The notes beneath the pieces are model-generated. The model had not been told where the DNA came from. It saw only the letters and a list, made by a program, of their open reading frames with translations, and made no database searches. Positions 171 to 50,267 of a stretch of DNA of 64,000 nucleotides are shown one piece after another. Within the stretch, counting starts at the first letter, position 1. Each line of letters begins with the position of its first letter. The stretch covers positions 1,529-65,528 of the forward strand of contig DATCLC010000069.1 of NCBI GenBank assembly GCA_036564135.1. The letters are read 5' to 3'. The stretch is from Solirubrobacterales bacterium. Lineage in GTDB: Bacteria > Actinomycetota > Thermoleophilia > Solirubrobacterales > 70-9. Made by a program: the position numbers and the translations under genes.

Positions 171-2315
<2,145 letters not shown>

Positions 2316-2487: not shown

Positions 2488-2817
2488 CTACCGCTTGTCG
2501 AGCTCGCGGACGATCACCGTGCGGCCGTCCTCGAGGCGGTAGACGCGGCCGATCTCGGTGCCGCGACCCACGACCCGCTCGCCCGGGTCGAGCTCGAGCT
2601 CACGCACCTGCTCCCCCGGGTCGGCCGTGACCTGCTCGGTGCGCTCGCGCTGCTCGGGGTCGTTCTGCTTGAGGATGTCCGTCATGTTCACCGAGGCGAG
2701 CGCGGCGAGCAGGAAGGCGACCGCGAGGACGATCCCGAGGTCGAACAGGTTAACGAGGCCGTCGAGCGGGTCGCCGGCCCGGTCCTCGTTGCGCCGCGCA
2801 CGCGCCGAGACCTTCAC
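2488..2817 (-). CDS. DUF2149-type small membrane protein, ExbD/TolR-like
   Basis: 109 aa. Basic N-terminus, then one TM with an embedded Asp (GLVNLFDLGIVLAVAFLLAAL), as in ExbD/TolR. GTG start overlaps the stop of the MotA/ExbB-like gene (GTGA 2814-2817). Confidence 0.7.
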   Translation of the reverse strand: MKVSARARRNEDRAGDPLDGLVNLFDLGIVLAVAFLLAALASVNMTDILKQNDPEQRERTEQVTADPGEQVRELELDPGERVVGRGTEIGRVYRLEDGRTVIVRELDKR

Positions 2818-3500
2818 GAGCCCCTCCCGGCGACAACCTGGGCAGTGCCGCGCGTGCCGGCGCCGTTCGCGCTCGCGGCAGGAGCCGACGGCGACGTCAG
2901 GCGGGCGGCCGCGTACTCGAGGTCCGAGTAGTCCTGCCCGTAGAGGCGGTCGCGCACGAGCGAGATCCCGAAGGCGATCGCGCCGACGAGCAGCCCGGCA
3001 ACGGTCACGCTGAACGCGACCCGCAGGTTCTCGGTGAGCTGCTGGACGTCTCCCTGGGCGAGGCCCGCCAGCGCAGGCGAGAGCGGGATCAGCGTACCCA
3101 TCAGGCCGAGCGCCGGCCCCATGCGCACCAGGATGCGGGTGCGCTCCAGCCGCCGCAGCGATCCGTACTCGAACTCGGCGAGCCGCTTCGCGATGCGCGC
3201 CTCGGCGTCGGGGCGGCGGACGTCGTCGAGGATCCCCATCGCCGTGGCCCGCGCCGGGGCGCTGTGGGCGATCGAGAGCAGCGCAGCCCGAGCCGCCGTC
3301 TCGTCGCCGCGGGCGAGCGCGTCGCGCGCCGCATCGACGGCCGCCTCGAGCCGGTGCAGGCTGCGCGGCGAGCGGCGGACCAGTTCGGTCACGAACGCAC
3401 CGGCCTCGACCAGCACGAGCGCGAGCGCGAGCAGCGCCGCGGCCAGCACCGGGATGCGGAGCGCCTCCGCGACGTCAAACAGGAGTTCCTCTACGACCAT
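2814..3500 (-). CDS. MotA/TolQ/ExbB family proton-channel protein
   Basis: 228 aa with multiple TM segments and the family C-terminal signature (MGPALGLMGTLIPL ... AFSVTVAGLLVGAIAFGISLV). ATG 3500 overlaps the preceding gene by 10 nt. Confidence 0.85.
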   Translation of the reverse strand: MVVEELLFDVAEALRIPVLAAALLALALVLVEAGAFVTELVRRSPRSLHRLEAAVDAARDALARGDETAARAALLSIAHSAPARATAMGILDDVRRPDAEARIAKRLAEFEYGSLRRLERTRILVRMGPALGLMGTLIPLSPALAGLAQGDVQQLTENLRVAFSVTVAGLLVGAIAFGISLVRDRLYGQDYSDLEYAAARLTSPSAPAASANGAGTRGTAQVVAGRGS

Positions 3501-4633
3501 GGGTTGATTCGTCCTTTCGGTTGCGGAAGCTTGCCGAGCTCGCGCAGGGTTCCCACGCCGAGCAGCGCGCCCGTCACCAGCGCGCCCCAGACGGCGCCGG
3601 GCACGGAGAAGCCGTTCTCCTCCTCGTTGAGCTGGCCGGTACGCGCCGAGATCGAGGGGCTCTCGGCGACGGCCCTCTTCGCGTTCTCGGGCGCGTCGAG
3701 CAGCTCGCCTTCGACCGGCTCGGTGCCCGGGGCGGGCTCGGGTTCGGGCCTCTTGTTCGGGGCCTCGGGCGCGCCGCGGTCATCCCCCACGCTCGCCGGG
3801 CCCGCGCCCTGGCCGTTGTCGTAGGGCCCGGAGTCCGGGGCGCGCTTGTGGCGGTTACGCCCGCCGCCCTCGCGATTGGGATCCTTCTTCCCCTTCTTCG
3901 GAGGAGGGCCCACCCGGACCTCGACGACCGTACTTCCTCCGCCTGAGCCCCCTACGGCGGACCCCTTGTACACGGTAAGGGCCACGTGGTAGCTCCCGGG
4001 CTTCCTGTACCGGTGCGTGACCACCCGCCCGGTGGCACCCGAGCCGTCATCGAACTGCCACACGTACACGAGTTCCTCGCCCGCCGGGCCCGTGGCCGTC
4101 GCGCTGAAGGTCACCTTCTCCCCCGGCCTCACCCGGTCAGGGCTCGCGGCGGCCTCGACCTCGATCACGGCGCCGTAGCGAAGGAGCACGCGCAAGGGGC
4201 TCGCTGCGAACGAGTCGCCGGCGTTTCGGTCCGAGCCGTTGGCGACCGGCCGCAGGAAGCGCGTCTGATCGGCTTCCTTCCAGACGACCGGCACCCTGCC
4301 GCCGTAGCCGTCCTCGACCTGGTGGATGTCGAGCACGACCCGGGACCCGTCGGGACGCACCACCTCGACGCGCTGGTAGTTGCCGCCAAAACCCGTCTGG
4401 CGGATGACCCACTCGAGCGAGAACCCGGTGACGGTCTCGGTGCGCTCGCCGGATGCCGAGCGGATCGTGTACTCCTGGTTGACGACGTCCTCTTCGCCAC
4501 GCGGCAGATCGACCTCCACGCTCCCCCCGGTGGGCGGCTCCACGACCACATCCGCGGCGCTCGCCCCCGGCGCGAACGCGAGGGGCAGGGCGAATGCCGC
4601 GGCAGCAGCGAGTGTCCGTAGCGCGCGTTTCAT
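3491..4633 (-). CDS. secreted PKD-domain protein with Pro/Glu/Lys-rich linker and C-terminal TM anchor
   Basis: ORF-track entry 3491..5209 trimmed to ATG 4633 (ATGA overlap with the upstream stop). Signal peptide MKRALRTLAAAAAFALPLAFAPGASA. PKD-like segment VTFSATATGPAGEELVYVWQFDDGSGATGRVVTHRYRKPGSYHVALTV. Linker PPPKKGKKDP...KRPEPEPAPGTEP. C-terminal TM VPGAVWGALVTGALLGVGTL. Confidence 0.75.
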   Translation of the reverse strand: MKRALRTLAAAAAFALPLAFAPGASAADVVVEPPTGGSVEVDLPRGEEDVVNQEYTIRSASGERTETVTGFSLEWVIRQTGFGGNYQRVEVVRPDGSRVVLDIHQVEDGYGGRVPVVWKEADQTRFLRPVANGSDRNAGDSFAASPLRVLLRYGAVIEVEAAASPDRVRPGEKVTFSATATGPAGEELVYVWQFDDGSGATGRVVTHRYRKPGSYHVALTVYKGSAVGGSGGGSTVVEVRVGPPPKKGKKDPNREGGGRNRHKRAPDSGPYDNGQGAGPASVGDDRGAPEAPNKRPEPEPAPGTEPVEGELLDAPENAKRAVAESPSISARTGQLNEEENGFSVPGAVWGALVTGALLGVGTLRELGKLPQPKGRINPWS

Positions 4634-5832
4634 TCGCCCCCCTCCGGCACGGTGAAGCTCACGGTCATCCATCCGAAGCCAGCGCCGGGCGGGTAGTAGC
4701 GCGCGAGGGGCGAGGCCTCGGGGCCGTGGGCGTTGGTGAGCGGGATTCGCTCGTACGTGTAGGTGACGCCCTCGGGCCCGGCCTCCACGGTCGGCTCGAG
4801 ATCGCGCCGAGCGAAGTCCCCGGTCACCGCGAGCCGCGAGCGCTCCGGGTCCCTCCAATACTCGACGTAGTCGTGGATCAGCCGGCCGCCGCCGTCCGCG
4901 GTCACCTCGACGATCGGGTCGTAGGCCCCGACGTCGAGGTGGTGCGCGGTCATCTCGAAGCGCACCGACCCGCGCAGCCGCAGGGAAGCGGCACCCGTCA
5001 CCGGGTCGAACCAGCCCTCCGCGAACGCCGCCGGCCCGTAGATGACCGTGTAGGGCAGCGGGACGGAGGGCGGAGGATCGCTGCACGGCGTCGAGAGGTG
5101 CGGCGGCGGGTACGCCACCGGCTCCTCGAGCACGGCGCCGTCCGCCGCGCTCACGCCAGGCCCACCTGCCGAGTGCACGTAGCAGACGAACGACTCGCGG
5201 ATCCGCCAATGGAGCTGCGCCTCGCTCACGTCGACCGCGGTCTCGGGCCGCTCGAGCAACTCTGGCTCCGCCTCGGAGGGCGGGGCGAGCGGGAGCGTGC
5301 CGCGCACCCGCACGCGCCCGAGGCCCCTCGGCAGCCGCCGTACGCGCAGCCTGCGCTGCAGCTCGCGGCGAAGGTAGCCGTCCAGTCGCAGCTTCCCCGA
5401 CGTATCGACCTCGCCGGTGATCGGGTTGAACGGCGCCACCTCATCGACACCGCGCAGGCGGCCGAGCGTGTACTGGGTACCGCGCAGCCTGGCGGTCAGC
5501 AGGGCACGTCCGGCCTGGATCGTCGCCGCGAGCGACTGCAGGCGCACGCTGCGGCGGCGCCTGCCCTTGCGCGCGGTCAGCTTCAGCGCGCCCTTCAGGC
5601 GCACGCGTGCGATCGAGCTCACCTCGCCGCTGCGGATCGGCAGCGTGACTGCGCGGCCGCGGCGCCTCGCCGGCGCCACCGCACGCAGCTTCACGTTCTG
5701 CGCACCCAAGGCGCGCGCCGCGTGCTTGCCGAGGCGGAGCTTTGCCGTGTTCGGCGAGTCCGCGTGCGCGGCGGCACCTCCCAGCAGGAGGGCCGCCACG
5801 ACGGCCGCCAAGAGCCCAGCGAGCAGCCTCAC
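4630..5832 (-). CDS. HtaA-domain-like secreted protein (second copy)
   Basis: C-terminal half has an HtaA-like core (AQLHWRIRESFVCYVHSAGG). Start set to GTG 5832 (GTGA overlap with the ATPase stop), giving a signal-like RLLAGLLAAVVAALLLGGAAAHA. Alternative start at 5871. Confidence 0.65.
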   Translation of the reverse strand: MRLLAGLLAAVVAALLLGGAAAHADSPNTAKLRLGKHAARALGAQNVKLRAVAPARRRGRAVTLPIRSGEVSSIARVRLKGALKLTARKGRRRRSVRLQSLAATIQAGRALLTARLRGTQYTLGRLRGVDEVAPFNPITGEVDTSGKLRLDGYLRRELQRRLRVRRLPRGLGRVRVRGTLPLAPPSEAEPELLERPETAVDVSEAQLHWRIRESFVCYVHSAGGPGVSAADGAVLEEPVAYPPPHLSTPCSDPPPSVPLPYTVIYGPAAFAEGWFDPVTGAASLRLRGSVRFEMTAHHLDVGAYDPIVEVTADGGGRLIHDYVEYWRDPERSRLAVTGDFARRDLEPTVEAGPEGVTYTYERIPLTNAHGPEASPLARYYPPGAGFGWMTVSFTVPEGGE

Positions 5833-6656
5833 CGCAGCTCCCCCTCGAGCTCGCGGGCGGCCCCGAGCCAATCGACGCGCAGCGCCGTGTGCCCGGCCTC
5901 GTCCGCGTCGAGGCGCGCCTCGACCTTCCAGACCTCGCGCAGGCGATCGGGCGCGAGCACCTCCCGCGGCTCGCCCGAGGCGACCGTGCGGCCATCCGAC
6001 ATCACCACCACCTCGTCGGCGAGCGCCGCGGCGAGCGCGAGGTCGTGCACGACCAGCAGCACCGCCAGTCCCTCCTCGGCGAGGTTTCGCAGGAGCCGGG
6101 CGACCGAGACGGTCGCCCCGAGGTCGAGCTGCGACGTGGGCTCGTCGGCCAAGAGCAGGGGCGCTTCCTGCGCGAGCGCGATCGCGATCTGCACGCGCTG
6201 GAGCTCGCCGCCGGAGAGCGTGGTGAGCCGGCGATGCGCGAACCGCGCGGTTCCGGTCCGCTCGAGCGCCCGCTCGACGGCGTCACGGTCGCGGCGGGTG
6301 GCGCGCGCGAGCGGCCGCAGGTGCGGCGAGCGGCCGATCCTGACCGCCTCCGCGACCGTGATCCCCTCGGGCACGCGCGGGCGCTGCGGGACGAACGCCC
6401 GTAGTCGGGCGAGGCGCCTGCCCCGCGTGCGGCGGACGTCGTGGCCCATGCACCGCACCTCGCCGCGCGCCGGGCGCAGGATCCCGGCCGCGGCGCGCGC
6501 GAACGTCGACTTGCCCGCGCCGTTCGGGCCCACCAGCGCGACGAGCTGACCCCGGTCCACGCGCAGGCTCGCGCCGTGGAGGATCGGCGCGCCGCCGAGG
6601 CGGACGTACACGTCGCGCGCGTCGAGCGCGGGCTCGTGTCCGCTCGCCACCGTCAC
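5829..6656 (-). CDS. hmuV: heme/siderophore ABC transporter ATP-binding protein
   Basis: Walker A GPNGAGKST, signature LSGGELQRV, Walker B LLLADEPTSQLD. ORF-track entry 5829..7235 trimmed to GTG 6656 (GTGA overlap with the permease stop). Confidence 0.85.
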   Translation of the reverse strand: MTVASGHEPALDARDVYVRLGGAPILHGASLRVDRGQLVALVGPNGAGKSTFARAAAGILRPARGEVRCMGHDVRRTRGRRLARLRAFVPQRPRVPEGITVAEAVRIGRSPHLRPLARATRRDRDAVERALERTGTARFAHRRLTTLSGGELQRVQIAIALAQEAPLLLADEPTSQLDLGATVSVARLLRNLAEEGLAVLLVVHDLALAAALADEVVVMSDGRTVASGEPREVLAPDRLREVWKVEARLDADEAGHTALRVDWLGAARELEGELR

Positions 6657-7657
6657 GCCGTCCTCCGCAGAAGCCACAGAAACAGCGGGACGCCCAGCAC
6701 GACCATGAACGGCCCGACGGGCAGCACGGTCGGGGCCGCCACGTTGCGGGCCAGCACGTCGCCGGCCGTAAGCAGCGCGGCGCCCGCCAGCGCCGAGGCG
6801 GGGATCACGAAGCTGTGGCTCGAGGTGCCCCCGGCCATGCGGACCAGGTGCGGGACGACCAGGCCGAGGAAGCTGAGCAGCCCGACCAGGGCCGCCGCCG
6901 CGGAGGCGAGCACGGCAGCGCAGATCCCCGCGCCCAGGCGGATCAGCTGCGGACGGCTGCCCAGCGAGGCCGCGACGTCGTCGCCGAGCGCGAGACGATC
7001 GAGCGGCCTGATCAGGACCAGGGCGAGCGCGAGCCCGACGACGAAGTACGGCCAAAACGACTCGAGGTCGATCCAGGCGTTCGGCGTGAGCCCGCCCGCC
7101 ATGAAGAAGACGACCGACTGGACGCGGTCCGGGAACGCCGTCATCAGACCGGTGGTGGCCGCGCCGAACAGGGCGGCGACGGCGATGCCGGCGAGGATCA
7201 CCTGGGTCACCCCGCCGCGGTTGCGCCCGGTCCACGCGATCGCGAAGACCACGGCCGCCGCGACCAAGCCGAACACCAGCGCGCCGACCGGCAGGAGCGC
7301 CACCGAGCCCGGGAAGGCCAAAAGGATAAGCGTGGCGCCGAACCCGGCGCCCGCGGTCACGCCGATCACGTCCGGCGAGGCGAGCGGATTGGCCAGCGCC
7401 CCCTGGAGCACGGCGCCGGCCACGCCCAGGGCCGCGCCCACGGCGACCGCCTCGACCGTGGTCGGCAGCCGGATGTCCATCACGATCTTGCGCTCGGGGC
7501 CATCGGCGAGGTCGCCGAACAGCGCGTCGATCACGGTGGCCAGCGGAATATCGACGGCCCCGATCGCAAGCGAGGCGCCCACGGCCGCAAGCAGCGCGAC
7601 GAGCGCGGCCACGATGACCGCGCTCCGGCGCGCGACTGTGGTGACCGTGAGCGCCAC
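6653..7657 (-). CDS. hmuU: FecCD-family heme/siderophore ABC permease
   Basis: 334 aa, polytopic, with typical FecCD/BtuC-like sequence (GAGICAAVLASAAAALVGLLSFLGLVVPHLVRMAGG). GTG start at 7657. Confidence 0.85.
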   Translation of the reverse strand: MALTVTTVARRSAVIVAALVALLAAVGASLAIGAVDIPLATVIDALFGDLADGPERKIVMDIRLPTTVEAVAVGAALGVAGAVLQGALANPLASPDVIGVTAGAGFGATLILLAFPGSVALLPVGALVFGLVAAAVVFAIAWTGRNRGGVTQVILAGIAVAALFGAATTGLMTAFPDRVQSVVFFMAGGLTPNAWIDLESFWPYFVVGLALALVLIRPLDRLALGDDVAASLGSRPQLIRLGAGICAAVLASAAAALVGLLSFLGLVVPHLVRMAGGTSSHSFVIPASALAGAALLTAGDVLARNVAAPTVLPVGPFMVVLGVPLFLWLLRRTA

Positions 7658-7664
7658 CGTCGGC

Positions 7665-8540
7665 TCAGTTCTTCAGGAACTGCCTGCGGACCATCCGGAT
7701 CGTGGCGGCCACGTCGGTCCCGGCCTGCAGCAGCGTGTTGTGCGAGGTGACGTACACGCGACCGTTCACGCCGGCGTTCGTCTCGCCGATGTAGGGGTGG
7801 TTGCGCAGGTACTCCGCGATCTCCTCGCGTTGGTCGGCGCGCCCGTGAGGCACGGCGATGACCACGTCGGGGTTGATGGCGAGGATCTTCTCGTTGGAGA
7901 GCTGCGCGAACCCGCCGCTGATCATGAAGCCCTCTCCATCGGGCGTCAGCCCGCCGGTGAGCAGACGCGCGCCCGCGGCGGTCACCAGGTCCCCGCCCCA
8001 GCTGTTGCGCAGGAACGCGTACGGCGTCTGCCCGACGCCCAGGATCATGAGCACCTTCGGGCGCGAGCGGATCTTGCGGCGCGCCTTCTTGATCGCGCGC
8101 TGGGTCTTGCGGGCGAGCTTCTTCGCACGCTTCGCCTTGCCCACGACCTTGCCGATCGCCCGGATCTTCTTCGGGACCTGGCGGACCCGAGCCGGATCCT
8201 TCTCGACGACCTTGATGCCGAGCCCGCGGATCGCCGAGTGGCCGGCGCGCCAGGTCCGCTCCGAGAAGACGAGGTCCGGATCGAGCTTTGCCAGCTGCTC
8301 GAGGTTCGGTCCGTTCGAGGCGTGCGAGAGCGGCAGCCGGATCGCGCCGCGCAGCTTGCGGTGGTACTTCACGGCGCCCGGGGTGAGGCCGACGGCGACC
8401 GGCTTGACGCCGAGCTTCACCAGCGTGTTCGCGGCGAACGGCGTGAGCGCCACGATCCGCTTCGGCTTCGCGGCCTCGGCCGGCGCGGCGAGCGCAGCGC
8501 TGGCGGCGAGAACTGCGAGGCAGGCGAGCGCGCGCCTCAT
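7665..8540 (-). CDS. hmuT: heme/siderophore periplasmic-binding-protein-type substrate-binding protein
   Basis: 291 aa. Signal peptide MRRALACLAVLAASAALAAPAEA. Family-typical RIVALTPFAANTLVKLG and LDPDLVFS motifs. ATGA overlap with the upstream gene. Confidence 0.8.
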   Translation of the reverse strand: MRRALACLAVLAASAALAAPAEAAKPKRIVALTPFAANTLVKLGVKPVAVGLTPGAVKYHRKLRGAIRLPLSHASNGPNLEQLAKLDPDLVFSERTWRAGHSAIRGLGIKVVEKDPARVRQVPKKIRAIGKVVGKAKRAKKLARKTQRAIKKARRKIRSRPKVLMILGVGQTPYAFLRNSWGGDLVTAAGARLLTGGLTPDGEGFMISGGFAQLSNEKILAINPDVVIAVPHGRADQREEIAEYLRNHPYIGETNAGVNGRVYVTSHNTLLQAGTDVAATIRMVRRQFLKN

Positions 8541-9367
8541 CGGGTCACCTCCCCCCGGGCGCGGCGGGCGAGCTCGACCGTCGCCTCGCGCAGCCCGGCC
8601 GCGTCGTTCACGGGCTGGGCGAACGCGACGCGGGCCGGCGCCTTGCCGCGCGGCGTCTCGATCGCCAGCTCGAGGCCGTAGCGGTCGATGCCCGTGCAGC
8701 GGGCGTGCGTCGCGTCCGGGTAGCCGGCCAGCGCCCGCGCGATGTTGAGCAGGGCGTCAGCGTGGTCGTCGTTCAGGTGCGCGGCCGCCGCCTGTGCCGC
8801 CGGCCGCGTGGGATCGGGCTGCGCTGCCGCGTACTCGGCGGCGCCGGCCGAGTCCATGCGGCCGTAGCCGCCGACCCAGCGCACGCGCTCGACGCGCAGG
8901 ACCCAAAGCGAGAAATCGCCGAAGCTCTCGTACGCGGCGGCGCTGGGCACGGCCTTCAGGTGAGCGTCGCGGGCGTGCTCGGCGAATTCACCCGTGGGGC
9001 GCTCCATGCTGCCGACGAGCGTGACGCGGCCGTGCGCGAGCGGCTCCTGGTCAGTCCACGCCTCAGCGACCACCAGGCTCGCCCGCGGGTCGCGCGCGAC
9101 GTTGCGGCCGTGCTCAGCCAGCGTCGAGAGCATGAACACGGGCGATCCGTCCGGCAGGCAGCCGTAGGTGGCCAACGACGCCCACGGGTTGCCGTCCGCG
9201 CTCAGGGTCGCGAGCGCGCCCGCCGAGTGCGCGGCGACCATCGTGCGCGCGTGCTCGGCAACGGTCGGCCCGGTCGCCGGCGCCGGCGGCGTCAACGGGG
9301 GCGGCGGCTCCGGGAGGTCGAGGCCCTCCGGGATGGCGTGCGGGTTGTAGGCCTGGATCGTCGTCAT
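8537..9367 (-). CDS. HugZ-like heme-utilisation protein (PNPOx-like split barrel plus DUF2470-like C-terminus)
   Basis: ORF-track entry 8537..9811 trimmed to ATG 9367 (ATGA overlap with the htaA stop). Contains GALATLSADGNPWASLATYG...ASLVVAE and a C-terminal HLNDDHADALLNIARAL. Confidence 0.7.
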   Translation of the reverse strand: MTTIQAYNPHAIPEGLDLPEPPPPLTPPAPATGPTVAEHARTMVAAHSAGALATLSADGNPWASLATYGCLPDGSPVFMLSTLAEHGRNVARDPRASLVVAEAWTDQEPLAHGRVTLVGSMERPTGEFAEHARDAHLKAVPSAAAYESFGDFSLWVLRVERVRWVGGYGRMDSAGAAEYAAAQPDPTRPAAQAAAAHLNDDHADALLNIARALAGYPDATHARCTGIDRYGLELAIETPRGKAPARVAFAQPVNDAAGLREATVELARRARGEVTR

Positions 9368-10287
9368 CGCGCCCTCGCGCCAACCAGCGTCGTCTTCACC
9401 GTCGTGTCGACCTCGGCGCCCGGGCCCGCGCCGACCCAGAGGTCGAACTTCACGGTTCCCTTCCTGCCGGCGAGCTTCTTGGCGACGCGCTTCGTGACCT
9501 GGACGACGATCTGCGCGCGCTTGCCGTCGCCGACCCGGTCGGGGGCCTTCACCTTGGCCTTGAACTGCCGCTTGCCGACCCGGATCTTCGTCCGCTTTGG
9601 AGCGGCGACCTCGCAGGGGCCGGTCTTGCAGCGCACCTTCGCGACCGCGGCCTTCGCACGCTTGCCGAGGCGCGCCTGCCCGACGACCTTGAGGCCGGGC
9701 GTCTCGCCGAACCCGGCCACTACCGAGACCGGGTCCATCGTCGTTTCGGCCGGGTAGCGGCCGAACACCGGCACGCCGTTCTCGGCGAGCGTCGCGGGAA
9801 TCGAGCTCCACTCGATCGTGGTCGGGCCGAACTCCGGATCGACCGCCTCGACATCCAGGTTCACGAGGTCCCGGTTGTCGTCGATCGGGTCGCCCCCGCC
9901 CATCGGCACGCTCTGCGCGTCCGCGTAGAGCTTGGCGCCCGTCGGCGCGAGCACCACGCGCGGGTTCGCGACGGTGATGTTGAGCGCTCCGCCATGGGCG
10001 AAGAAGTTGACCGAGCCGGTCGCCTGGACCTCGCCGAGCCCCGTCTCGGTGTCGAGGGTGCCGCTCGCGATCGGGAAGCGGTACGTGCCGTCCTCGTTCT
10101 CAGTCGCGCCGCCCGAGAGCGTGATCTCCCCCGCGCCGCCGATGTAGGTGCGGAAGCTCTCCTTCACGCCCCAGACGGCCCAACCGCCCTTCACCTCGAC
10201 GGTCTCGGCGCTCGCTGTCACGGCGAACGCGCCCCCCAGCGCCACGCTCGCCGCCGCGAGCATCGTCGTCCTCAGAAATGCTTTCAA
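9364..10287 (-). CDS. htaA: HtaA-domain heme-binding protein
   Basis: Signal peptide plus the canonical HtaA core GGWAVWGVKESFRTYIGG...GTYRFPIASG. TTG start 10287 preceded by AAGGAGGGA. Confidence 0.8.
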   Translation of the reverse strand: MKAFLRTTMLAAASVALGGAFAVTASAETVEVKGGWAVWGVKESFRTYIGGAGEITLSGGATENEDGTYRFPIASGTLDTETGLGEVQATGSVNFFAHGGALNITVANPRVVLAPTGAKLYADAQSVPMGGGDPIDDNRDLVNLDVEAVDPEFGPTTIEWSSIPATLAENGVPVFGRYPAETTMDPVSVVAGFGETPGLKVVGQARLGKRAKAAVAKVRCKTGPCEVAAPKRTKIRVGKRQFKAKVKAPDRVGDGKRAQIVVQVTKRVAKKLAGRKGTVKFDLWVGAGPGAEVDTTVKTTLVGARAR

Positions 10288-10351: not shown

Positions 10352-10379
10352 TTAGGGCGCCCTAATTAGGGCACCCTAA
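10352..10379. promoter_or_regulatory. tandem 14-bp palindromes, candidate metalloregulator operator of the heme operon
   Basis: TTAGGGCGCCCTAA (perfect palindrome, 10352-10365) is immediately followed by TTAGGGCACCCTAA (10366-10379), 65-92 nt upstream of the htaA start. The TTAGG/CCTAA arms resemble the outer arms of DtxR/IdeR iron boxes. Confidence 0.5.
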
Positions 10380-10668: not shown

Positions 10669-11676
10669 TCAGTCGAAGTCGCGAATGCGACCGCCGCGAC
10701 CGTCTGAATGTCGAAGTCGCGGGCCCTGGGTGCTCAACGGCGCTCGCCGAGCACCCGCGGCTTGAGGCGCGAGGGGCGTGGGTTTCGGGAGGCGGGCCAG
10801 GACCTCCTCGAAGGTTTCGGCGAGCTCCGCAGGGCTGGGCCGAGCGGCCGGGTCGCGCTGGAGGCAGGCCATGATCGGCTCGGCGAGCGCGGCGGGCAGC
10901 CTGCCCGCGAGCGGGTCGGGATCGCGGGCTAGCTGGGGCCAGCGCACCTCGCGTTCCCCGCTCGCGTCGCCGCGGGGGAACGGGCGCTCGCCGGTCGCCG
11001 CCTCGTAGAGGGTCACGCCCAGCCCCCACACGTCTGCGGCGGGGCCAACCGGCCCTAGCTTCCGCGGCAGGCACTGCTCCGGGGCCATGTACGCGGCGGT
11101 GCCCACCGGCCGGCTGAGCTCGGCGGCCTCCTCGAGGTCCCGGGCGACGCTCAGGTCGATCAGCCGCGGCGGCGCGCCCATGATCGTGTTCGCCGCCTTG
11201 ACGTCGAGGTGCACTACGCCCTCGGCGTGCAGGTAGTGCAGGGCCGCCGCGAGCCGAACCGCGAGCGGCACGAGCTGCTCGACCGGGAGCGGCCCGAAAC
11301 GCCGGAGAAGCGTTGAGAGCCGCGGGCCCCTCAAGTACTCCAGCACCAGGTGCGGGCGCGGGCCGTCGAGCTCGGCGGAGAACCCGCGCACGATGACCGG
11401 ATGGCTGAGGGTCTCGATCAACCCCCACTCCGCCTCGAGCGCCGCGAGTGCCCACTCGTCCTCGACGAGGTGCGGGCGGATCAGCTTGGCGACCACGACC
11501 GAGCGCCGATGGTCATCCCACGCCAGGTAGGCGTCGAAGCGGTTGCCCCCACCCAGGCGCCGGAGCGCCGAGAGCCCCGGAACGATGTCGTCGCCCTCGG
11601 CGAAGTCCCAGCTCGGCGCGCGCTGGGCGCCCTTCGCGGGGCCCTGCTCCCGTCTCCTGGCGCTGTGGGACCTCAT
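10669..11676 (-). CDS. Ser/Thr protein kinase (soluble)
   Basis: 335 aa with Hanks-type motifs: VVAKLIRP, catalytic-loop HLDVKAANTIM, and AAYMAPEQ. Confidence 0.85.
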   Translation of the reverse strand: MRSHSARRREQGPAKGAQRAPSWDFAEGDDIVPGLSALRRLGGGNRFDAYLAWDDHRRSVVVAKLIRPHLVEDEWALAALEAEWGLIETLSHPVIVRGFSAELDGPRPHLVLEYLRGPRLSTLLRRFGPLPVEQLVPLAVRLAAALHYLHAEGVVHLDVKAANTIMGAPPRLIDLSVARDLEEAAELSRPVGTAAYMAPEQCLPRKLGPVGPAADVWGLGVTLYEAATGERPFPRGDASGEREVRWPQLARDPDPLAGRLPAALAEPIMACLQRDPAARPSPAELAETFEEVLARLPKPTPLAPQAAGARRAPLSTQGPRLRHSDGRGGRIRDFD

Positions 11677-47065: not shown

Positions 47066-47115
47066 TTCCCTCCCGTCAACGCGCGAGGGCCCCTCGCGGA
47101 GCCCTCGCTTTGAAG

Positions 47116-47189
47116 TCGGGGCGACTGGATTTGAACCAGCGACCTTTCGGCCCCCAGCCGAATGCGCTACCAGACTGCGCCACGCCCCG
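47116..47189 (-). tRNA. tRNA-Pro (GGG)
   Basis: Minus-strand cloverleaf: CGGGGCG TG GCGC AGTCTGGTA GCGC A TTCGG CTGGGGG CCGAA AGGTC GCTGG TTCAAAT CCAGT CGCCCCG A. No encoded CCA. Confidence 0.9.
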
Positions 47190-47265
47190 AATTCAGTTGT
47201 CCGGGCCCCGCTTCGGGCGGTGCCCGTTGACACTCATGATGCCGTATTTCGGCCCTTTCGTGTCA

Positions 47266-47338
47266 AGCGGGCGACGGGGCTCGAACCCGCTACTTTCAGC
47301 TTGGAAGGCTGACGTGCAACCAGTTACACCTCGCCCGC
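47266..47338 (-). tRNA. tRNA-Gly (TCC)
   Basis: Minus strand reads GCGGGCG...TCAGC CTTCCAA GCTGA...GCGGG TTCGAGC CCCGT CGCCCGC T. Anticodon loop CTTCCAA. Confidence 0.9.
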
Positions 47339-47375
47339 TGAACGGCCCCGATTATAGGTTCGGCGGAGGTTGAAC

Positions 47376-47942
47376 TCAGCCCCGGCGCCAGGCCAGGAGC
47401 ACCGTGTAGGTCGCGTAGCGCGAATCGGGCTTGCCCCGCCGGGCGGCGCCCTTGCCCACCCCGATGCCGACGTGCGTGAAGCGGCGGCCGAGGATGTTCT
47501 TGCGCACGCCGTTGCGCGGGTTGAGCCAGGTCTCCATCATGGCGAGCGGGGTAGTGCTGAACCCGATCGCCTCGGCGTACCCGTAGCGCTGCCCTGGGCG
47601 CAGGTAGCCGGAGGCCTCGAGTCGCTGGTCGAGCGGGGCCTCGCCGCGACAGCGATGGCGCAGGCAGTTCTTGCGCAGCATGACCTTGGTGTGCCGCCGC
47701 GCGATGCGCGTCAGGTCGGGGTGCGCCTTGACCTTGCCGGAGTTGCGCTTCGTGCGTACCTCGCGCAGCAGGCAGCGCATCGCGCGCTTGAGCTGGGCGG
47801 GGGTCGCCTGGGCGGGGGTCGCCTTCGCCTTCGGGCAGTCGGTCTCGAGTGCCGCCGCCGGCGCGGGGCTCAACGCGAGCAGCGCGACGGTGAGCAGCGC
47901 ACAGGCGATTGCGGCAAGCGGAATGTGCGGGCGCGCGAGCAT
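47376..47942 (-). CDS. secreted CAP/SCP-like domain protein (paralogue 1)
   Basis: ORF-track entry 47376..48146 runs through tRNA genes, so it is trimmed to ATG 47942. Signal peptide present. Cys-rich N-terminal region, and HTKVMLRKNCLRHRCRGEAPLDQRLEASGYL...THVGIGV typical of bacterial CAP domains. Confidence 0.7.
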   Translation of the reverse strand: MLARPHIPLAAIACALLTVALLALSPAPAAALETDCPKAKATPAQATPAQLKRAMRCLLREVRTKRNSGKVKAHPDLTRIARRHTKVMLRKNCLRHRCRGEAPLDQRLEASGYLRPGQRYGYAEAIGFSTTPLAMMETWLNPRNGVRKNILGRRFTHVGIGVGKGAARRGKPDSRYATYTVLLAWRRG

Positions 47943-47994
47943 CTCTCTAAGGACCAACAGCGCCGACCCCCGCTTTGTTGCGGCCGGCGTCAAG

Positions 47995-48067
47995 CGGGGC
48001 AGCCAGGACTCGAACCTGGAATCGCCGGTTTTGGAGACCGGTGCCTTACCAATTTGGCCACTGCCCC
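47995..48067 (-). tRNA. tRNA-Trp (CCA)
   Basis: Minus strand reads GGGGCAG TG GCC AAATTGGTAA GGC A CCGGT CTCCAAA ACCGG CGATT CCAGG TTCGAGT CCTGG CTGCCCC G. Confidence 0.85.
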
Positions 48068-48099
48068 CGGTTGTTGGGCCCATCAGGGTACCGAGCCTA

Positions 48100-48183
48100 T
48101 GCGGGCGGAGGGACTTGAACCCCCACGCTCTTACGAGCACCGGCACCTAAAGCCGGCGTGTCTACCAATTCCACCACGCCCGC
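48100..48183 (-). tRNA. tRNA-Leu (TAG)
   Basis: Minus strand reads GCGGGCG...CCGGC TTTAGGT GCCGG, then a long variable arm, then GGGGG TTCAAGT CCCTC CGCCCGC A. Confidence 0.88.
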
Positions 48184-48227
48184 GCGTCCACGATCATAGG
48201 CCCAGCGGGCGATCCGGTTGCGCCCAT

Positions 48228-48779
48228 ATGTCGCGTCCGGTGGGCCGCGGATTTACACTGCGCTCGATGGAGGCGACGCACGTCCGCCCGGGGTACGAGG
48301 TCTGGCGCCCGAACCGCGAGAGCGCCCGCAACAAGTCGACGAAGGCGCTCGTCGCGCTCGTGCTGTTGATCTCAGCGGCGCTGATCGTGATCATCGTGTT
48401 CGGCGGCTGGGAACGGCTGCAGGACACGACGATGGCGATCATCGCGCTCGCCTGGGCAGGCGTGTATGTGCTGTTCGCCTATCTGGTCTCGCGCTGGAAC
48501 CGGGGCGTGCTGCCCGTGGCCGCGTCGCTTGCCGTGATCCTCGCGATCTTTGCCGGGGTCGCGACTCCCGCCTGGTTCGACCGCGCCAAGGACGGGCTGA
48601 GCTCTCCCGCGCTCCCAGAGGAGATGCTCGGGCTGCTCACGCTCCTGCTCATCCCCGTGCAGCTGCTGCTGATCGTGGTCGCGATGGTCGCGTTCAACCA
48701 GCAGTGGCACATCGAGGAGGAGCGCCCGATCAGGGGCGCTCCGCTCGCGGGCGAGGACGCCGCGCCCAGCAGGGCCTAG
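48228..48779 (+). CDS. hypothetical polytopic membrane protein
   Basis: Only the C-terminal part of ORF-track entry 47370..48779 is plausible; the rest overlaps tRNAs and the CAP gene. Four hydrophobic segments. Start is ATG 48228 or ATG 48267. Confidence 0.6.
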   Translation: MSRPVGRGFTLRSMEATHVRPGYEVWRPNRESARNKSTKALVALVLLISAALIVIIVFGGWERLQDTTMAIIALAWAGVYVLFAYLVSRWNRGVLPVAASLAVILAIFAGVATPAWFDRAKDGLSSPALPEEMLGLLTLLLIPVQLLLIVVAMVAFNQQWHIEEERPIRGAPLAGEDAAPSRA

Positions 48780-48806
48780 GCGCAGCGCCTGCAGCCGGCG
48801 CCTGCC

Positions 48807-49352
48807 TTAGCCGCTCTTCTTGCCGACGACGACGGTGTAGAACGCCCTGCCGTTGCGCACGGAGACCCCCACGCCCAAGTGGCGGTAGGTGCTGTTCCGA
48901 AGCGTCGCCCGGTGGGAGGAGCTGCGCATCCATTGGCGCACGATGTCCCGCGGCGTCGCCCGCGAGCGGTTATGGGCGATGACCTCGCCGAGCGCGAAGC
49001 TGCGCGCCCCCCGCAGGTACCCGGTGCGCCGCACGCGCCCCTCGAGCGACGGCTCGCCGGGGCACTGGTGTGAGAAGCAGTTGTGCTTGCGCATGTAGCG
49101 GGTGTGCGCCTGCGCGGCCTGCTGCAGGTTCTTGTTGGGGCGCAGGTTCTTGGCGCTGCGGTTCTTGTTGACGAGGCACTGGATCGCGGCCCGCGCCTTC
49201 TTCTTGGTGAGCTTCTTGGAGGCGGTGTTGGCGCCCTTGCAGCTACGCGCCTGCGCGCTCTCCGGCGCTACCGCGGCGGGCAGGGCGGCGATCAGGACCG
49301 CGGCAACGACGAGTGTCAGCGTTTGTCTCAGCGAAATCATCATCAACCCCAT
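48807..49352 (-). CDS. secreted CAP/SCP-like domain protein (paralogue 2)
   Basis: 181 aa. Signal peptide, and HTRYMRKHNCFSHQCPGEPSLEGRVRRTGYL...RHLGVGV. Collinear with 47376..47942. Confidence 0.7.
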   Translation of the reverse strand: MGLMMISLRQTLTLVVAAVLIAALPAAVAPESAQARSCKGANTASKKLTKKKARAAIQCLVNKNRSAKNLRPNKNLQQAAQAHTRYMRKHNCFSHQCPGEPSLEGRVRRTGYLRGARSFALGEVIAHNRSRATPRDIVRQWMRSSSHRATLRNSTYRHLGVGVSVRNGRAFYTVVVGKKSG

Positions 49353-49391
49353 ATCTGCTCGTCCCAGTCCCCCTCTAACACGCCCGCGCGT

Positions 49392-50081
49392 TCAAAAGAG
49401 CGTCGCGTGGCTGTCGCGCGGGGCAATCAGCTCGGGCCCATCTTTGCGCACATCGTTGACAAAGTCGTTTACCTCGCGCATGACGAGGGCGTCCTCGGGG
49501 GCCGGGCGCAGGACCTCGAGCAGGGCCTCGATGTCGTTCGTGTCGGAGATCCAGAGCTCCTCCGCCTCGGGATCGAGGACGACCGGCATCCGGTCGTGGA
49601 TCGGGCGCATGAGCTCGTTGGGCGCGCAGGTGATGAGCGCGCAGCTCGCGATGGGCTCTGAGTCGCGGGGCTCGTAGCGCGCCCAGATGCCGGCGAAGGC
49701 GAAGAGGTCGCCGTCGGGGCGGCTGAACCAGATCGGCACCTTGCCGCGCTCGTCGCGGCGCCACTCGTAGAACCCGTCAGCGGGGATCAGGCAGCGGCGC
49801 TCGCGGAACGACTCGGCGAAGGCGGGCTGGCGCTCGAGCGACTCGGCGCGCGCGTTGATGAGCGGCGGACCCTTCTTCTCGAGCGCCCACTTGCCGGGGA
49901 TCAGGCCCCAGCGCAGGGTGCCGAGCTCGCGCCGCTGGGCACGCTCGCGGACGGCGAGCACCGGGTCCGTGGGCGCGATGTTGAAGCGCGGCCGCTCGTC
50001 GATCTCGGTCTCGTCGGGGAGCTCGAAGCGCAGCTTGATCCGGTTGGGATCGGGGTTGGCGAGCGTGTAGCGGCCGCACAT
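49392..50081 (-). CDS. SOS-response-associated peptidase (SRAP/YedK family)
   Basis: Trimmed to ATG 50081, which gives the invariant MCGRY N-terminus (catalytic Cys2). Family-typical remainder (FNIAPT, WGLIP). Confidence 0.85.
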   Translation of the reverse strand: MCGRYTLANPDPNRIKLRFELPDETEIDERPRFNIAPTDPVLAVRERAQRRELGTLRWGLIPGKWALEKKGPPLINARAESLERQPAFAESFRERRCLIPADGFYEWRRDERGKVPIWFSRPDGDLFAFAGIWARYEPRDSEPIASCALITCAPNELMRPIHDRMPVVLDPEAEELWISDTNDIEALLEVLRPAPEDALVMREVNDFVNDVRKDGPELIAPRDSHATLF

Positions 50082-50183
50082 GGCTCTGCCGAGGTTAGTT
50101 GCTGAGGCGTTGCGATTTCGGCGCGAGTCGCGCGGATCCCGTGACACGACGACTGCCAGAGTCGGCAGAATGAAAGTCTCCAC

Positions 50184-50267
50184 GCGGCGGTGGAGGAATG
50201 GGCAGACTCGCGGCTCTCAAAAAGCCGTGTCCGCAAGGACGTGTGGGTTCGAATCCCACCCGCCGCA
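50184..50267 (+). tRNA. tRNA-Leu (CAA)
   Basis: GCGGCGG TG GAGG AATGGGCAGA CTCG CGGCT CTCAAAA AGCCG TGTCCGCAAGGACGT GTGGG TTCGAAT CCCAC CCGCCGC A. Confidence 0.88.

Follow-up and report, generated by a model that had tools for sequence, protein, structure and literature searches.

A PKD-domain protein encoded with an HmuU/HmuV-like motor pair in the heme-uptake operon of a probable monoderm actinobacterium

Powered import of the Ton and Tol type is regarded as a trait of bacteria with two membranes. HmuU and HmuV are abundant in the Bacteroidota of the human gut and oral cavity, where they belong to the hmu heme operon, and the HmuS protein works outside the cytoplasm, without ATP there; related chelatases need ATPase partners. 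In Corynebacterium, HtaA and HtaB are membrane-anchored surface proteins with C-terminal transmembrane (TM) anchors, and to our knowledge the corynebacterial heme system has neither proton-motor genes nor a PKD/PruR-like protein. The gene names HmuU and HmuV are in published use (PMC11681262, PMC10434189), and the two proteins have been equated with ExbB and ExbD, the likeness to ExbD being drawn from AlphaFold models (PMC10100974). The function of HmuT, HmuU and HmuV is unsettled in the literature (PMC12094164, PMC13227078), the current published view for the Bacteroidota being that HmuU and HmuV work via TonB (PMC12583661). The Ton parts of monoderm Actinobacteria have been judged in a survey to be probably non-functional (PMC12204202).

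Here, we describe a heme-uptake operon in which a pair of this type is encoded directly downstream of a PKD-domain protein. The operon lies in a window (the whole stretch of DNA analysed, 64,000 nucleotides) whose source is probably a Solirubrobacterales-like soil actinobacterium with a single membrane. We found no published description of this PKD-protein/motor system.

The heme operon and its motor pair

The nine genes of the operon and its candidate control region are given in the order of transcription:

10352..10379, no strand: candidate operator upstream of the operon, consisting of two 14-bp palindromes, TTAGGG(N)GCCCTAA, that abut each other (0 expected by chance)
9364..10287, minus strand: first operon gene, encoding a 307-aa HtaA-domain protein (Pfam HtaA, E 1.8e-39)
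8537..9367, minus strand: HugZ/HutZ-like protein (PNPOx-like plus DUF2470), candidate enzyme for heme degradation (its start, at 9367, overlaps the stop of the preceding HtaA gene)
7665..8540, minus strand: Peripla_BP_2 substrate-binding protein of the heme/siderophore type (Pfam)
6653..7657, minus strand: FecCD-type permease (Pfam)
5829..6656, minus strand: ABC transporter ATPase (Pfam), start probably the GTG at 6656 (GTGA overlap with the FecCD stop)
4630..5871, minus strand: 413-aa ORF for an HtaA-domain protein with a signal peptide and without a C-terminal anchor (Pfam HtaA, E 6.7e-9)
3491..4633, minus strand: PKD-domain protein gene, whole ORF including the stop (ORF and a family of about 100 clusters)
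2814..3500, minus strand: MotA/TolQ/ExbB-like protein (HmuU family), 228 aa, three TM helices (Pfam, hydrophobic segments, alignments)
2488..2817, minus strand: DUF2149 protein (HmuV family), 109 aa, N-terminal TM (Pfam DUF2149, E 3.5e-16)

The combination of HtaA proteins with Peripla_BP_2, FecCD and ABC_tran components, all recognised by Pfam, makes this an HtaA-type heme-uptake operon, and the same set recurs in related loci, most of which have an HtaA-domain gene directly upstream of the PKD gene. The only genes seen in the related Solirubrobacterales loci are those for the HtaA, ABC importer, HugZ-like, PKD, MotA-like and DUF2149 proteins. HmuY, HmuR, the CobN-like HmuS and a polytopic HmuT are all absent from the nine genes, which places the operon outside the hmuYRSTUV type. 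The PKD protein, which has the gene position of HmuT, was considered as its equivalent and rejected, since HmuT, at about 230 aa, is polytopic and has 5-8 TM helices (PMC10100974).

The palindrome of the candidate operator was found again at promoter positions in 19 related loci, where it lies ahead of the heme genes and in many cases also of an HtaA-PKD-MotA-DUF2149 sub-operon; to judge from sequence, the motor genes and the PKD protein appear to be co-regulated with the heme genes. Scans for consensus promoters and terminators at the ends of the operon found nothing.

In the case of the MotA-like protein, membership of the MotA/TolQ/ExbB family, one mark of which is a conserved TM2-TM3 core, is indicated by a match to Pfam MotA_ExbB (PF01618, E 1.4e-7, above the gathering score) and by three hydrophobic segments corresponding to the three TM helices. 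A single-sequence search of solved structures returned nothing relevant, and only a profile search worked, reaching MotA (8gqy) and TolQ (9avi), both near 6e-4, as well as ExbB (7ajq) at 0.036. The protein aligns over its full length with HmuU of Bacteroidota (27-34% identity) and with Coriobacteriia proteins (43-46%). The DUF2149 gene starts within a GTGA shared with the MotA-like gene (a 4-nt overlap), and the single TM of its product holds Asp26 in an NLFD motif, at a position that is Asp or Glu in nine of nine diverse members. This small subunit matches Pfam DUF2149 and not ExbD, and neither single-sequence nor profile searches of solved structures gave a match to ExbD, TolR or MotB. The two genes are adjacent, can be aligned with the Bacteroidota proteins and lie within a heme-acquisition locus; on the evidence of the MotA-like alignment and the DUF2149 match they are homologues of HmuU and HmuV of the Bacteroidota hmu operon, a relationship that the initial annotation had overlooked, and the pair is more distantly homologous to MotA/TolQ/ExbB.

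The PKD-domain protein and its partners

The PKD gene runs on the minus strand from an ATG at 4633 to a TAG at 3491-3493 and encodes 380 aa. Its Shine-Dalgarno sequence, GGAGGGGGG, is located 4 nt before the ATG, which shares ATGA with the stop of the upstream HtaA-like gene. We place the start at 4633 because the longer in-frame ORF (to 5209) runs into that upstream gene and because the homologues begin with M(K/R)RAL. The parts of the protein are as follows:

4556..4633, minus strand: residues 1-26, signal peptide presumably cleaved after ASA (sequence and hydrophobic segment; the least conserved hydrophobic part)
4178..4555, minus strand: N-terminal domain, residues 27-152, PruR/sulfite-oxidase-like (SUOX) fold (AlphaFold2 pLDDT 95.2, Foldseek)
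3911..4162, minus strand: PKD (Ig-like) domain, residues 158-241 (Pfam PKD_4 and Foldseek)
3605..3910, minus strand: disordered Pro/Gly/Glu/Lys spacer, residues 242-343 (pLDDT below 50, composition, three conserved islands)
3539..3604, minus strand: C-terminal TM helix, residues 344-365, motif P.AA(W/L)G......LLG.GAL.E (hydrophobicity, conservation)
3494..3538, minus strand: short basic cytoplasmic tail, residues 366-380 (sequence)

The initial annotation had described a cleavable signal peptide, beta-rich domains with a PKD-like repeat, a low-complexity spacer, a single TM near the C-terminus and a 10-nt overlap with the MotA/ExbB-like gene, and this anatomy was borne out throughout. The putative signal peptide, MKRALRTLAAAAAFALPLAFAPGASA followed by AD, has n-, h- and AXA-type c-regions when read by eye; AlphaFold2 predicts two confident beta domains (about 27-152 and 158-241) and has low confidence over the TM and the spacer, with pLDDT below 50 at residues 249-352; the one TM-type hydrophobic segment, at about 344-365, is followed by 15 residues; and the overlap is exact, the ATG of the MotA-like gene lying at 3500. 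The PKD assignment rests on Pfam PKD_4 (E 2.3e-16, residues 162-226) and Pfam PKD (E 4.2e-13), and Foldseek aligns the domain with collagenase PKD domains at TM scores of 0.72-0.79, normalised by target length. Since all these features were found again in the approximately 100 sequence clusters of the family, which is apparently confined to Solirubrobacterales-like actinobacteria, they are not due to chance.

For the N-terminal domain, which has no Pfam match (Oxidored_molyb included), the best Foldseek match is PruR (7kom), with a TM score of 0.62 and a probability of 1.00, the E-value being only 1.7e-3; several PruR pterin-binding entries are among the top matches, at sequence identities of 9-16%. 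PruR is a ligand-sensing periplasmic protein that controls a membrane enzyme (PMC11194511). The PKD protein has no cysteine, and its ectodomain has no invariant His, Cys or Met, leaving Tyr55 and Arg58 as the only candidate ligand residues.

The spacer had initially been likened to the Pro/Glu/Lys spacer of TonB. It contains 16% Pro, 15% Gly and 12% Glu in the window protein; across the family it ranges from 93 to 166 aa in length and has a median Pro content of 14.5%. The window protein has only short EP/KP runs, and strong ones, of up to 17 dipeptides, are limited to a small number of members; the family spacer is on the whole Gly/Ala/Pro-rich. Most spacers are flexible and do not form a rigid EP/KP rod, which is not ideal for transmitting force. 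Three islands are conserved within them: GP(D/N)R.GGG.N (251-260 in the window protein), E.V.G.LL (305-312) and A-R-x-G (330-333).

It should be noted that the C-terminal helix is among the most conserved parts of the protein. In an alignment of 98 sequences it carries 3.27 bits per column, compared with 3.27 for the N-terminal domain, 3.04 for the PKD domain, 2.13 for the signal peptide and 1.6-2.0 for the spacer, and residues L357, G361 and E365 in the helix, like G309, A330, R331 and G333 in the spacer, are invariant. The helix is thus under sequence-specific constraint, and conservation on a par with the folded domains, with three invariant residues, is not expected of a passive anchor. 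A helical-face analysis showed no single face to be favoured (p=0.55). Covariation (MI-APC) between the PKD C-terminus and the MotA-like and DUF2149 proteins gave only noise, the top pairs being spread over all regions (35 trios), and a distance-matrix comparison of the TM and tail with MotA TM1 gave a weak partial correlation (r 0.27; 18 loci, FecCD/ABC controlled).

The association with the motor genes is strict. A MotA-like gene lies directly downstream of the PKD gene in all 39 family loci with room downstream, and a DUF2149 gene is present in all 37 with still more room; among loci with enough sequence, 40 of 40, one divergent trio included, have the PKD gene followed by both motor genes. 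The PKD and MotA-like genes overlap, stop to start, in 28 of 34 loci, and the 4-nt overlap between the motor genes is found in 33 of 34, which suggests that the three genes are translationally coupled. The divergent homologue (locus L129, 34% identical) belongs to a PKD-MotA-DUF2149 trio that stands alone, without heme genes in its vicinity and without any HtaA. As the trio persists without heme genes, the invariant partner of the PKD protein is the motor and not HtaA. The partnership proposed from the single locus is therefore an obligate one at the genomic level, and homologues lacking adjacent MotA/ExbB-like genes, which would have spoken against it, were not encountered among the 39 loci. 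No other conserved candidate for an output protein was found beside the trio, either in the related loci or in L129.

Possible mode of action and competing explanations

Our preferred reading, which we hold with no more than moderate and evenly balanced confidence, is that a PKD/HmuU-like/DUF2149 module, which in the window sits within an HtaA-type heme-uptake operon, has the PKD protein as its dedicated third component. The proposal that it is the partner of the adjacent stator is well supported by comparative genomics, that is, by linkage, gene overlaps and the constraint on the TM. According to the mechanism that we envisage, the PKD protein would be exported, lose its signal peptide and be held N-out/C-in by its C-terminal helix. 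This helix, with Glu365 at the cytoplasmic boundary, would pack against the proton-driven motor formed by the ExbB-like and DUF2149 proteins, and the flexible spacer would allow the PruR-like and PKD ectodomain to span the cell wall. Proton flow via Asp26 of DUF2149 might then do conformational work on the PKD protein, and this work might aid the capture or extraction of heme, or its hand-over between the secreted HtaA proteins and the binding protein of the ABC importer. The PKD protein would thus be a functional analogue of TonB/TolA with the opposite membrane topology, and not a homologue; a reach to the HtaA proteins, as proposed initially, would depend on context.

Other explanations have to be weighed against this. 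A signal peptide followed by domains, a Pro/Gly spacer, a TM and a short charged tail is the ordinary layout of Gram-positive wall-spanning surface proteins, and for this reason the topology of the PKD protein is unremarkable by itself. It may therefore be a passive receptor or relay for heme or hemoproteins that, much like the anchored HtaA and HtaB of Corynebacterium, spans the wall without any energy input, the motor being a separate entity (a channel, or part of another step) and the linkage reflecting a shared pathway. The location of the gene next to the HtaA genes and the heme ABC importer, as well as the absence of an interaction signal from covariation in the 35 trios and the 18-locus distance matrices, agree with such a role. 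We nevertheless consider it unlikely, given that the TM is as conserved as the folded domains and has an invariant Glu and Gly, that the trio is kept without heme genes in L129, that start/stop overlaps with the motor genes are nearly universal, and that the HtaA proteins of the same operon, both of which lack a C-terminal anchor, do without such a helix.

MotB anchors its motor through a peptidoglycan-binding domain, and the DUF2149 protein has only about 55 extracellular residues and no wall-binding domain that we could find. The PKD protein might accordingly be an accessory that tethers, positions or gates the stator, as a wall anchor or a ligand-sensing switch, the output lying elsewhere. 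Its juxtamembrane E.V.G.LL and A-R-x-G motifs could touch the small DUF2149 ectodomain, and the PruR-like fold is that of a ligand-sensing regulator of a membrane enzyme (PMC11194511). However, the Pfam and NCBIfam scans detected no wall-binding domain in the PKD protein either, and the lack of another conserved output candidate beside the trio makes this role quite improbable. That the C-terminal segment, an A-R-(T/S)-G motif with a helix and a basic tail, is a sorting signal for sortase- or exosortase-like cleavage and wall attachment seems very improbable indeed. The likeness to LPXTG and PGF-CTERM signals (a short motif, a hydrophobic helix starting with P-G, basic C-terminal residues) is superficial: neither LPXTG nor LAXTG is present, position three of the motif is T, S, R or A and Leu-Pro is absent, A-R-x-G precedes the helix by about 11 or more residues instead of adjoining it, and no NCBIfam sorting-signal model matched. 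Moreover, such helices are not normally this conserved, the segment is seen on one protein per locus only, and no sortase gene lies beside the trio in annotated contigs, most loci having been screened only for the nine operon proteins.

Relation to known systems

In loci of Coriobacteriia and Actinomycetes, the gene directly before the same motor pair encodes a beta-propeller protein that has a signal peptide, a spacer predicted to be disordered and a TM at its C-terminus; among the Bacteroidota-type loci, 59 of 61 have an HmuS with a C-terminal TM. We considered whether the C-terminal modules of the PKD and Coriobacteriia beta-propeller families are homologous and rejected this, hhalign aligning only 15 TM columns with a probability of 1.7%; their likeness is one of architecture and no more than an analogy. 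A contig labelled Faecalibacterium that carries HmuS-T-U-V (L045) was left out as evidence on monoderms, since it comes from a MAG and its binning could be wrong. An unlikely but wider generalisation is that motors of the HmuU/HmuV type form a separate, widespread proton-driven branch, whose output passes not through TonB but through C-terminal-helix proteins encoded just upstream: the PKD/PruR-like protein in Solirubrobacterales, a beta-propeller protein in Coriobacteriia and, in Bacteroidota, perhaps HmuS, the CobN-like dechelatase. If true, single-membrane bacteria would use powered nutrient capture at the cell surface, and the unexplained HmuTUV genes would be reassigned.

The strict conservation of the motor, the overlap of its genes with that of a surface protein and their apparent co-regulation in a heme operon point to the proton motive force having an active part when heme is moved or extracted across a thick wall, and suggest that powered capture of nutrients also occurs in bacteria that lack an outer membrane. 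Such an active role contrasts with the "probably vestigial" ExbB/ExbD-like genes of monoderm Actinobacteria (PMC12204202). The monoderm system would also provide an independent handle on HmuU/HmuV, there being no outer-membrane receptor to serve.

The system resembles Ton and Tol in having a MotA/TolQ/ExbB-family protein, a small protein whose only TM contains an Asp, and a third protein, again single-pass, in which a long disordered linker, Pro-rich in part, leads to a globular domain outside the cytoplasm; the association with iron/heme acquisition is a further likeness. It differs in that the host is a probable monoderm and the locus has no TonB-dependent receptor, in that the small subunit is DUF2149 and not Pfam ExbD, and in its PruR-like plus PKD ectodomain. 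TonB and TolA have an N-terminal signal anchor, whereas in the PKD protein the N-terminal segment is of the cleavable type and poorly conserved, and the conserved TM is the C-terminal helix (N-out/C-in). The idea of a "TonB in reverse" has to be abandoned as homology and is an analogy: whole-protein Pfam and NCBIfam scans gave PKD matches only and no TonB_C (PF03544), the TM has no SxxxH motif, and the N-terminal domain is PruR/SUOX-like. That domain is modelled with a fold like that of PruR, the periplasmic pterin-binding SUOX-fold protein of Proteobacteria, and the succession of an SUOX-like and an Ig-like domain resembles sulfite oxidase (Foldseek match 2a9b).

With the hmuYRSTUV operons of P. 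gingivalis and B. thetaiotaomicron, the locus has in common the HmuU/HmuV homologues, a heme-acquisition setting (by induction or by location) and a large extracytoplasmic protein with a C-terminal TM encoded upstream, which is HmuS there and the PKD protein here; HtaA proteins, an ABC importer and a HugZ-like enzyme take the place of HmuY, HmuR, HmuS and HmuT. With the Corynebacterium HtaA/HtaB-HmuTUV system it shares HtaA-domain proteins and a Peripla_BP_2/FecCD/ABC_tran importer in one operon, as well as surface components on C-terminal TM anchors, although in the window it is not the HtaA proteins that carry them.

The operon and the gene of the PKD protein

The gene of the PKD protein is the seventh in a row of nine minus-strand genes, which form an actinobacterial HtaA-type heme-uptake operon to which a motor-like pair has been added.

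The nine-gene operon (2488-10287, minus strand)
Gene 1: 10287-9364, minus strand, HtaA protein
Gene 2: 9367-8537, minus strand, PNPOx + DUF2470 protein, HugZ-like
Gene 3: 8540-7665, minus strand, Peripla_BP_2 protein
Gene 4: 7657-6653, minus strand, FecCD protein
Gene 5: ~6656-5829, minus strand, ABC ATPase
Gene 6: 5871-4630, minus strand, second HtaA-domain protein
Gene 7: 4633-3491, minus strand, PKD protein
Gene 8: 3500-2814, minus strand, MotA/TolQ/ExbB-family protein with three TMs (MotA-like)
Gene 9: 2817-2488, minus strand, DUF2149 protein, one TM with Asp26

Start and stop codons overlap at six of the eight junctions (4-10 nt, ATGA or GTGA), which suggests translational coupling along nearly the whole operon; at the ABC/HtaA junction the overlap is up to 43 nt, if the longest HtaA ORF is correct. 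Both HtaA-domain proteins (9364-10287 and 4630-5871) have an N-terminal signal sequence and neither a C-terminal anchor nor a lipobox. The C-terminal end of the 307-aa protein is Lys-rich, and the N-terminal half (~215 aa) of the 413-aa protein had no match in Pfam.

Two abutting 14-bp palindromes of the form TTAGGG(N)GCCCTAA, TTAGGGCGCCCTAA and TTAGGGTGCCCTAA, are located at 10352-10379, ~65 nt upstream of the first gene, whereas the number expected by chance is zero. In 19 related loci, this box recurs at promoter-like positions, typically ahead of the gene for the binding protein or the DUF2470 protein, with a further copy ahead of the HtaA-PKD-MotA-DUF2149 genes. Its presence before both gene groups suggests that the boxes would define one regulon, which is probably iron- or heme-responsive, with the box as candidate operator.

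The operon is immediately preceded by a same-strand ORF (10669-11676, minus strand) that contains VVHLDVKAANTIM, which by eye resembles the catalytic loop of a Ser/Thr protein kinase. At the DUF2149 end, the window has a convergent, type III-like glutamine synthetase gene (171-2315, plus strand, 714 aa), and GlnA is also found at this end in two Coriobacteriia-type loci (L007, 8446-9864, minus strand; L022, 969-2540, plus strand). This adjacency is probably a coincidence, since most other Solirubrobacterales loci carry APS kinase, BON or NHL genes there. Elsewhere in the window, five tRNA genes (Pro-GGG, Gly-TCC, Trp-CCA, Leu-TAG and Leu-CAA) are clustered at 47115-50267.

The PKD gene runs from an ATG at 4633 to a TAG at 3491-3493 and encodes 380 residues. 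The ATG is preceded by a strong Shine-Dalgarno sequence, GGAGGGGGG, and shares bases with the stop codon of the preceding HtaA-like gene (ATGA), and homologues start at the corresponding M(K/R)RAL; a longer in-frame ORF reaching 5209 is therefore not the gene. The stop codon lies 10 nt within the MotA-like gene, whose ATG is at 3500. The anatomy described in the initial annotation, including this overlap, was correct in each element.

Domains of the PKD protein
Residues 1-26: signal peptide, ending in ASA, followed by AD
Residues ~27-152: N-domain, mean pLDDT 95.2 when modelled alone with 65 sequences
PKD domain: Pfam PKD_4, E 2.3e-16; AF2 and Foldseek concur
Residues 242-343: spacer, 16% Pro, 15% Gly, 12% Glu; pLDDT <50 over 249-352
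Residues ~344-365: TM, single hydrophobic helix
C-terminal to the TM: basic tail of 15 residues

A conserved trio and its C-terminal helix

A search with the single PKD sequence returned only five close relatives, and a profile search retrieved ~100 clusters of 365-454 aa, after which the score falls sharply. The named homologues come from MAGs of the Solirubrobacterales, an order of Actinomycetota whose members are known as Gram-positive monoderms. Nearly all full-length members share the same order: signal peptide, N-domain, PKD domain, GP(D/N)R.GGG.N, a variable spacer, E.V.G.LL, A-R-x-G, a Gly/Asp-rich stretch, a TM with the motif P.AA(W/L)G......LLG.GAL.E, and a short tail.

Gene contexts were compared in eight contigs and 42 metagenome loci. 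The MotA-like gene directly follows the PKD gene in all 39 loci with room downstream, and the DUF2149 gene comes next in all 37 loci with more room. The PKD and MotA-like genes share a stop/start overlap in 28 of 34 loci, and a 4-nt overlap joins the MotA-like and DUF2149 genes in 33 of 34. One locus, L129 (2521-4879), consists of the bare trio of PKD, MotA-like and DUF2149 genes, flanked by housekeeping (RsmB, ribulose-phosphate epimerase) and polysaccharide/glycosyltransferase genes; no heme genes, HtaA or ABC importer were found in this neighborhood. Its PKD homologue is divergent, with 34% identity over the ectodomain, and keeps the C-terminal motifs. From this invariable linkage and the L129 trio, it follows that the conserved unit is the trio, and that the heme context belongs to the main clade. 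Homologues without adjacent MotA/ExbB genes, which according to the initial annotation would refute a partnership with the stator, were encountered neither in the 39 loci nor at L129. The spacer of the L129 homologue includes a highly charged, helix-like Arg/Glu/Gln stretch.

Across 98 sequences, the TM and the N-domain are equally conserved (3.27 bits per column); lower values apply to the PKD domain (3.04) and to the proteins' own signal peptides (2.13), and the lowest to the spacer (1.6-2.0). Three TM residues are invariant: L357, G361 and E365, the last at the cytoplasmic boundary. Invariance extends to the A-R-x-G motif (A330, R331, G333) and to the E.V.G.LL motif (G309); P345, A348, G350 and G359 are near-invariant. 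This conservation points to, but does not prove, specific contacts within and near the membrane. No single conserved helical face was found, MI-APC covariation over 35 trios gave only noise, a distance-matrix test showed no more than a weak trend, and AF2 modelled the C-terminal TM segment without confidence.

Ectodomain and spacer

The N-domain had no match in Pfam. The best Foldseek match of its model is PruR (7kom; TM 0.62, probability 1.00, E only 1.7e-3, identity 9-16%), and several PruR entries are within the top structural matches. PruR is a periplasmic pterin-binding protein with a sulfite-oxidase (SUOX) fold (PMC11194511). The full-length model also matches sulfite oxidase, in which an Ig-like domain comes after the Moco domain, just as a SUOX-like domain precedes the Ig-like PKD domain here; the combination may thus be an old one. 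The PKD protein contains no cysteine, and hence does not bind Moco as sulfite oxidase does. Only the invariant Tyr55 and Arg58 stand out as residues that might bind a planar ligand, heme for instance, and this is speculation.

Across the family, the spacer has 93-166 residues (median 114) and consists of 17.5% Gly, 16% Ala and 15% Pro. Its description as TonB-like is only partly accurate: EP/KP runs are prominent in a few members, e.g. PEPKPQKAKPKPEKKPQPEKRKP, but short in the window protein, and the family-wide composition is one of Gly, Ala and Pro. Fully extended, ~100 spacer residues could, we infer, span roughly 30 nm.

The motor-like pair, its relatives and the proposed mechanism

In the Bacteroidota heme operon hmuYRSTUV, the MotA/TolQ/ExbB protein is HmuU and the DUF2149 protein HmuV (PMC11681262, PMC10434189); they are reported as ExbB- and ExbD-like, with their role unresolved (PMC10100974, PMC12094164, PMC13227078, PMC12583661). 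For methanogen DUF2149, the only remark is "linked to TolQ" (PMC9425974). The window pair belongs to the HmuU/HmuV family. In full-length alignment, MotA-like is 27-34% identical to HmuU of Bacteroidota and 43-46% to that of Coriobacteriia, with an almost invariant TM2-TM3 core, and its profile matched, with E-values of 6e-4 to 0.04, solved structures of MotA, TolQ and ExbB. DUF2149 showed no sequence link to solved ExbD, TolR or MotB structures; it has its architecture and the acidic TM residue in common with them.

Starting from distant DUF2149 sequences, a genome scan yielded 80 loci. In five Coriobacteriia/Actinomycetes MAGs (L007, 5615-8372; L009; L010; L022; L038), the HmuU/HmuV homologues directly follow the gene of a different surface protein. 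This protein combines a signal peptide with an NHL/PQQ-like beta-propeller and an Ig-like domain, and it also has a disordered acidic/Pro-rich spacer, a GPVS.RSGW motif and, at the C-terminus, a Gly-rich TM. The neighboring genes, among which no heme genes were found, include those of a CWB2 wall-binding protein and of a membrane protein that is weakly ABC_cobalt-like. Bacteroidota-type loci (L012-L086) have the order HmuS - (small membrane protein) - HmuT - HmuU - HmuV. In 59 of 61 of them, HmuS, a CobN-like protein of 1300-1580 aa, carries a TM at its C-terminus, and in 39 of 61 a conserved VVLKKE-like motif stands ~19 residues before this TM; HmuS terminal TMs are mentioned in PMC10100974 and PMC12583661. 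The HmuS TM sequences look variable, and the extra small membrane protein (134-290 aa) is only sometimes present. The likeness of the PKD protein to these upstream proteins is architectural; no homology could be demonstrated between the C-terminal modules. In L045, a contig labelled Faecalibacterium prausnitzii, genes for a CbiK-type chelatase with a TM and for a PepSY_TM protein lie before HmuS-HmuT-HmuU-HmuV. Provided that the contig is correctly binned, a Firmicute (monoderm) carries the hmu inner-membrane module; alternatively, the contig may belong to Bacteroidales and have been mis-binned.

We propose that the ExbB-like and DUF2149 proteins would together act as a MotAB/ExbBD-type motor driven by protons, against which the PKD protein, once exported, would be held N-out/C-in by its conserved helix. 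Through the spacer, the ectodomain would be able to extend into the wall or across it, and motor work on the PKD protein would promote heme capture or hand-over between the unanchored HtaA proteins and the ABC importer. On the evidence, all of it comparative, physical association of the PKD protein with the motor is somewhat probable, and the mechanism as a whole could equally well be right or wrong. Force transduction towards HtaA specifically, as put forward in the initial annotation, is somewhat less likely than not.

A Pro/Gly-rich wall-spanning segment followed by a C-terminal TM is an ordinary design of Gram-positive surface proteins. The PKD protein could thus be a passive relay or anchor, which we consider unlikely given a helix as conserved as the N-domain; a role as stator tether or ligand-sensing gate is slightly less likely still. 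That the C-terminal segment is a sorting signal is highly improbable.

No account of such a trio, or of ExbB-like motors within HtaA-type loci, emerged from full-text literature searches, and the trio would surprise specialists. According to a recent evolutionary survey, the Ton components of monoderm Actinobacteria are probably non-functional (PMC12204202). Although its motor pair is of the HmuU/HmuV family, the window locus differs from hmuYRSTUV in having no HmuY, R, S or T. The PKD protein fails the defining tests of a TonB member, as it has neither a TonB_C domain nor the N-terminal SxxxH anchor and its topology is opposite. In its mode of action, however, the proposed trio would work like the Ton/Tol system.
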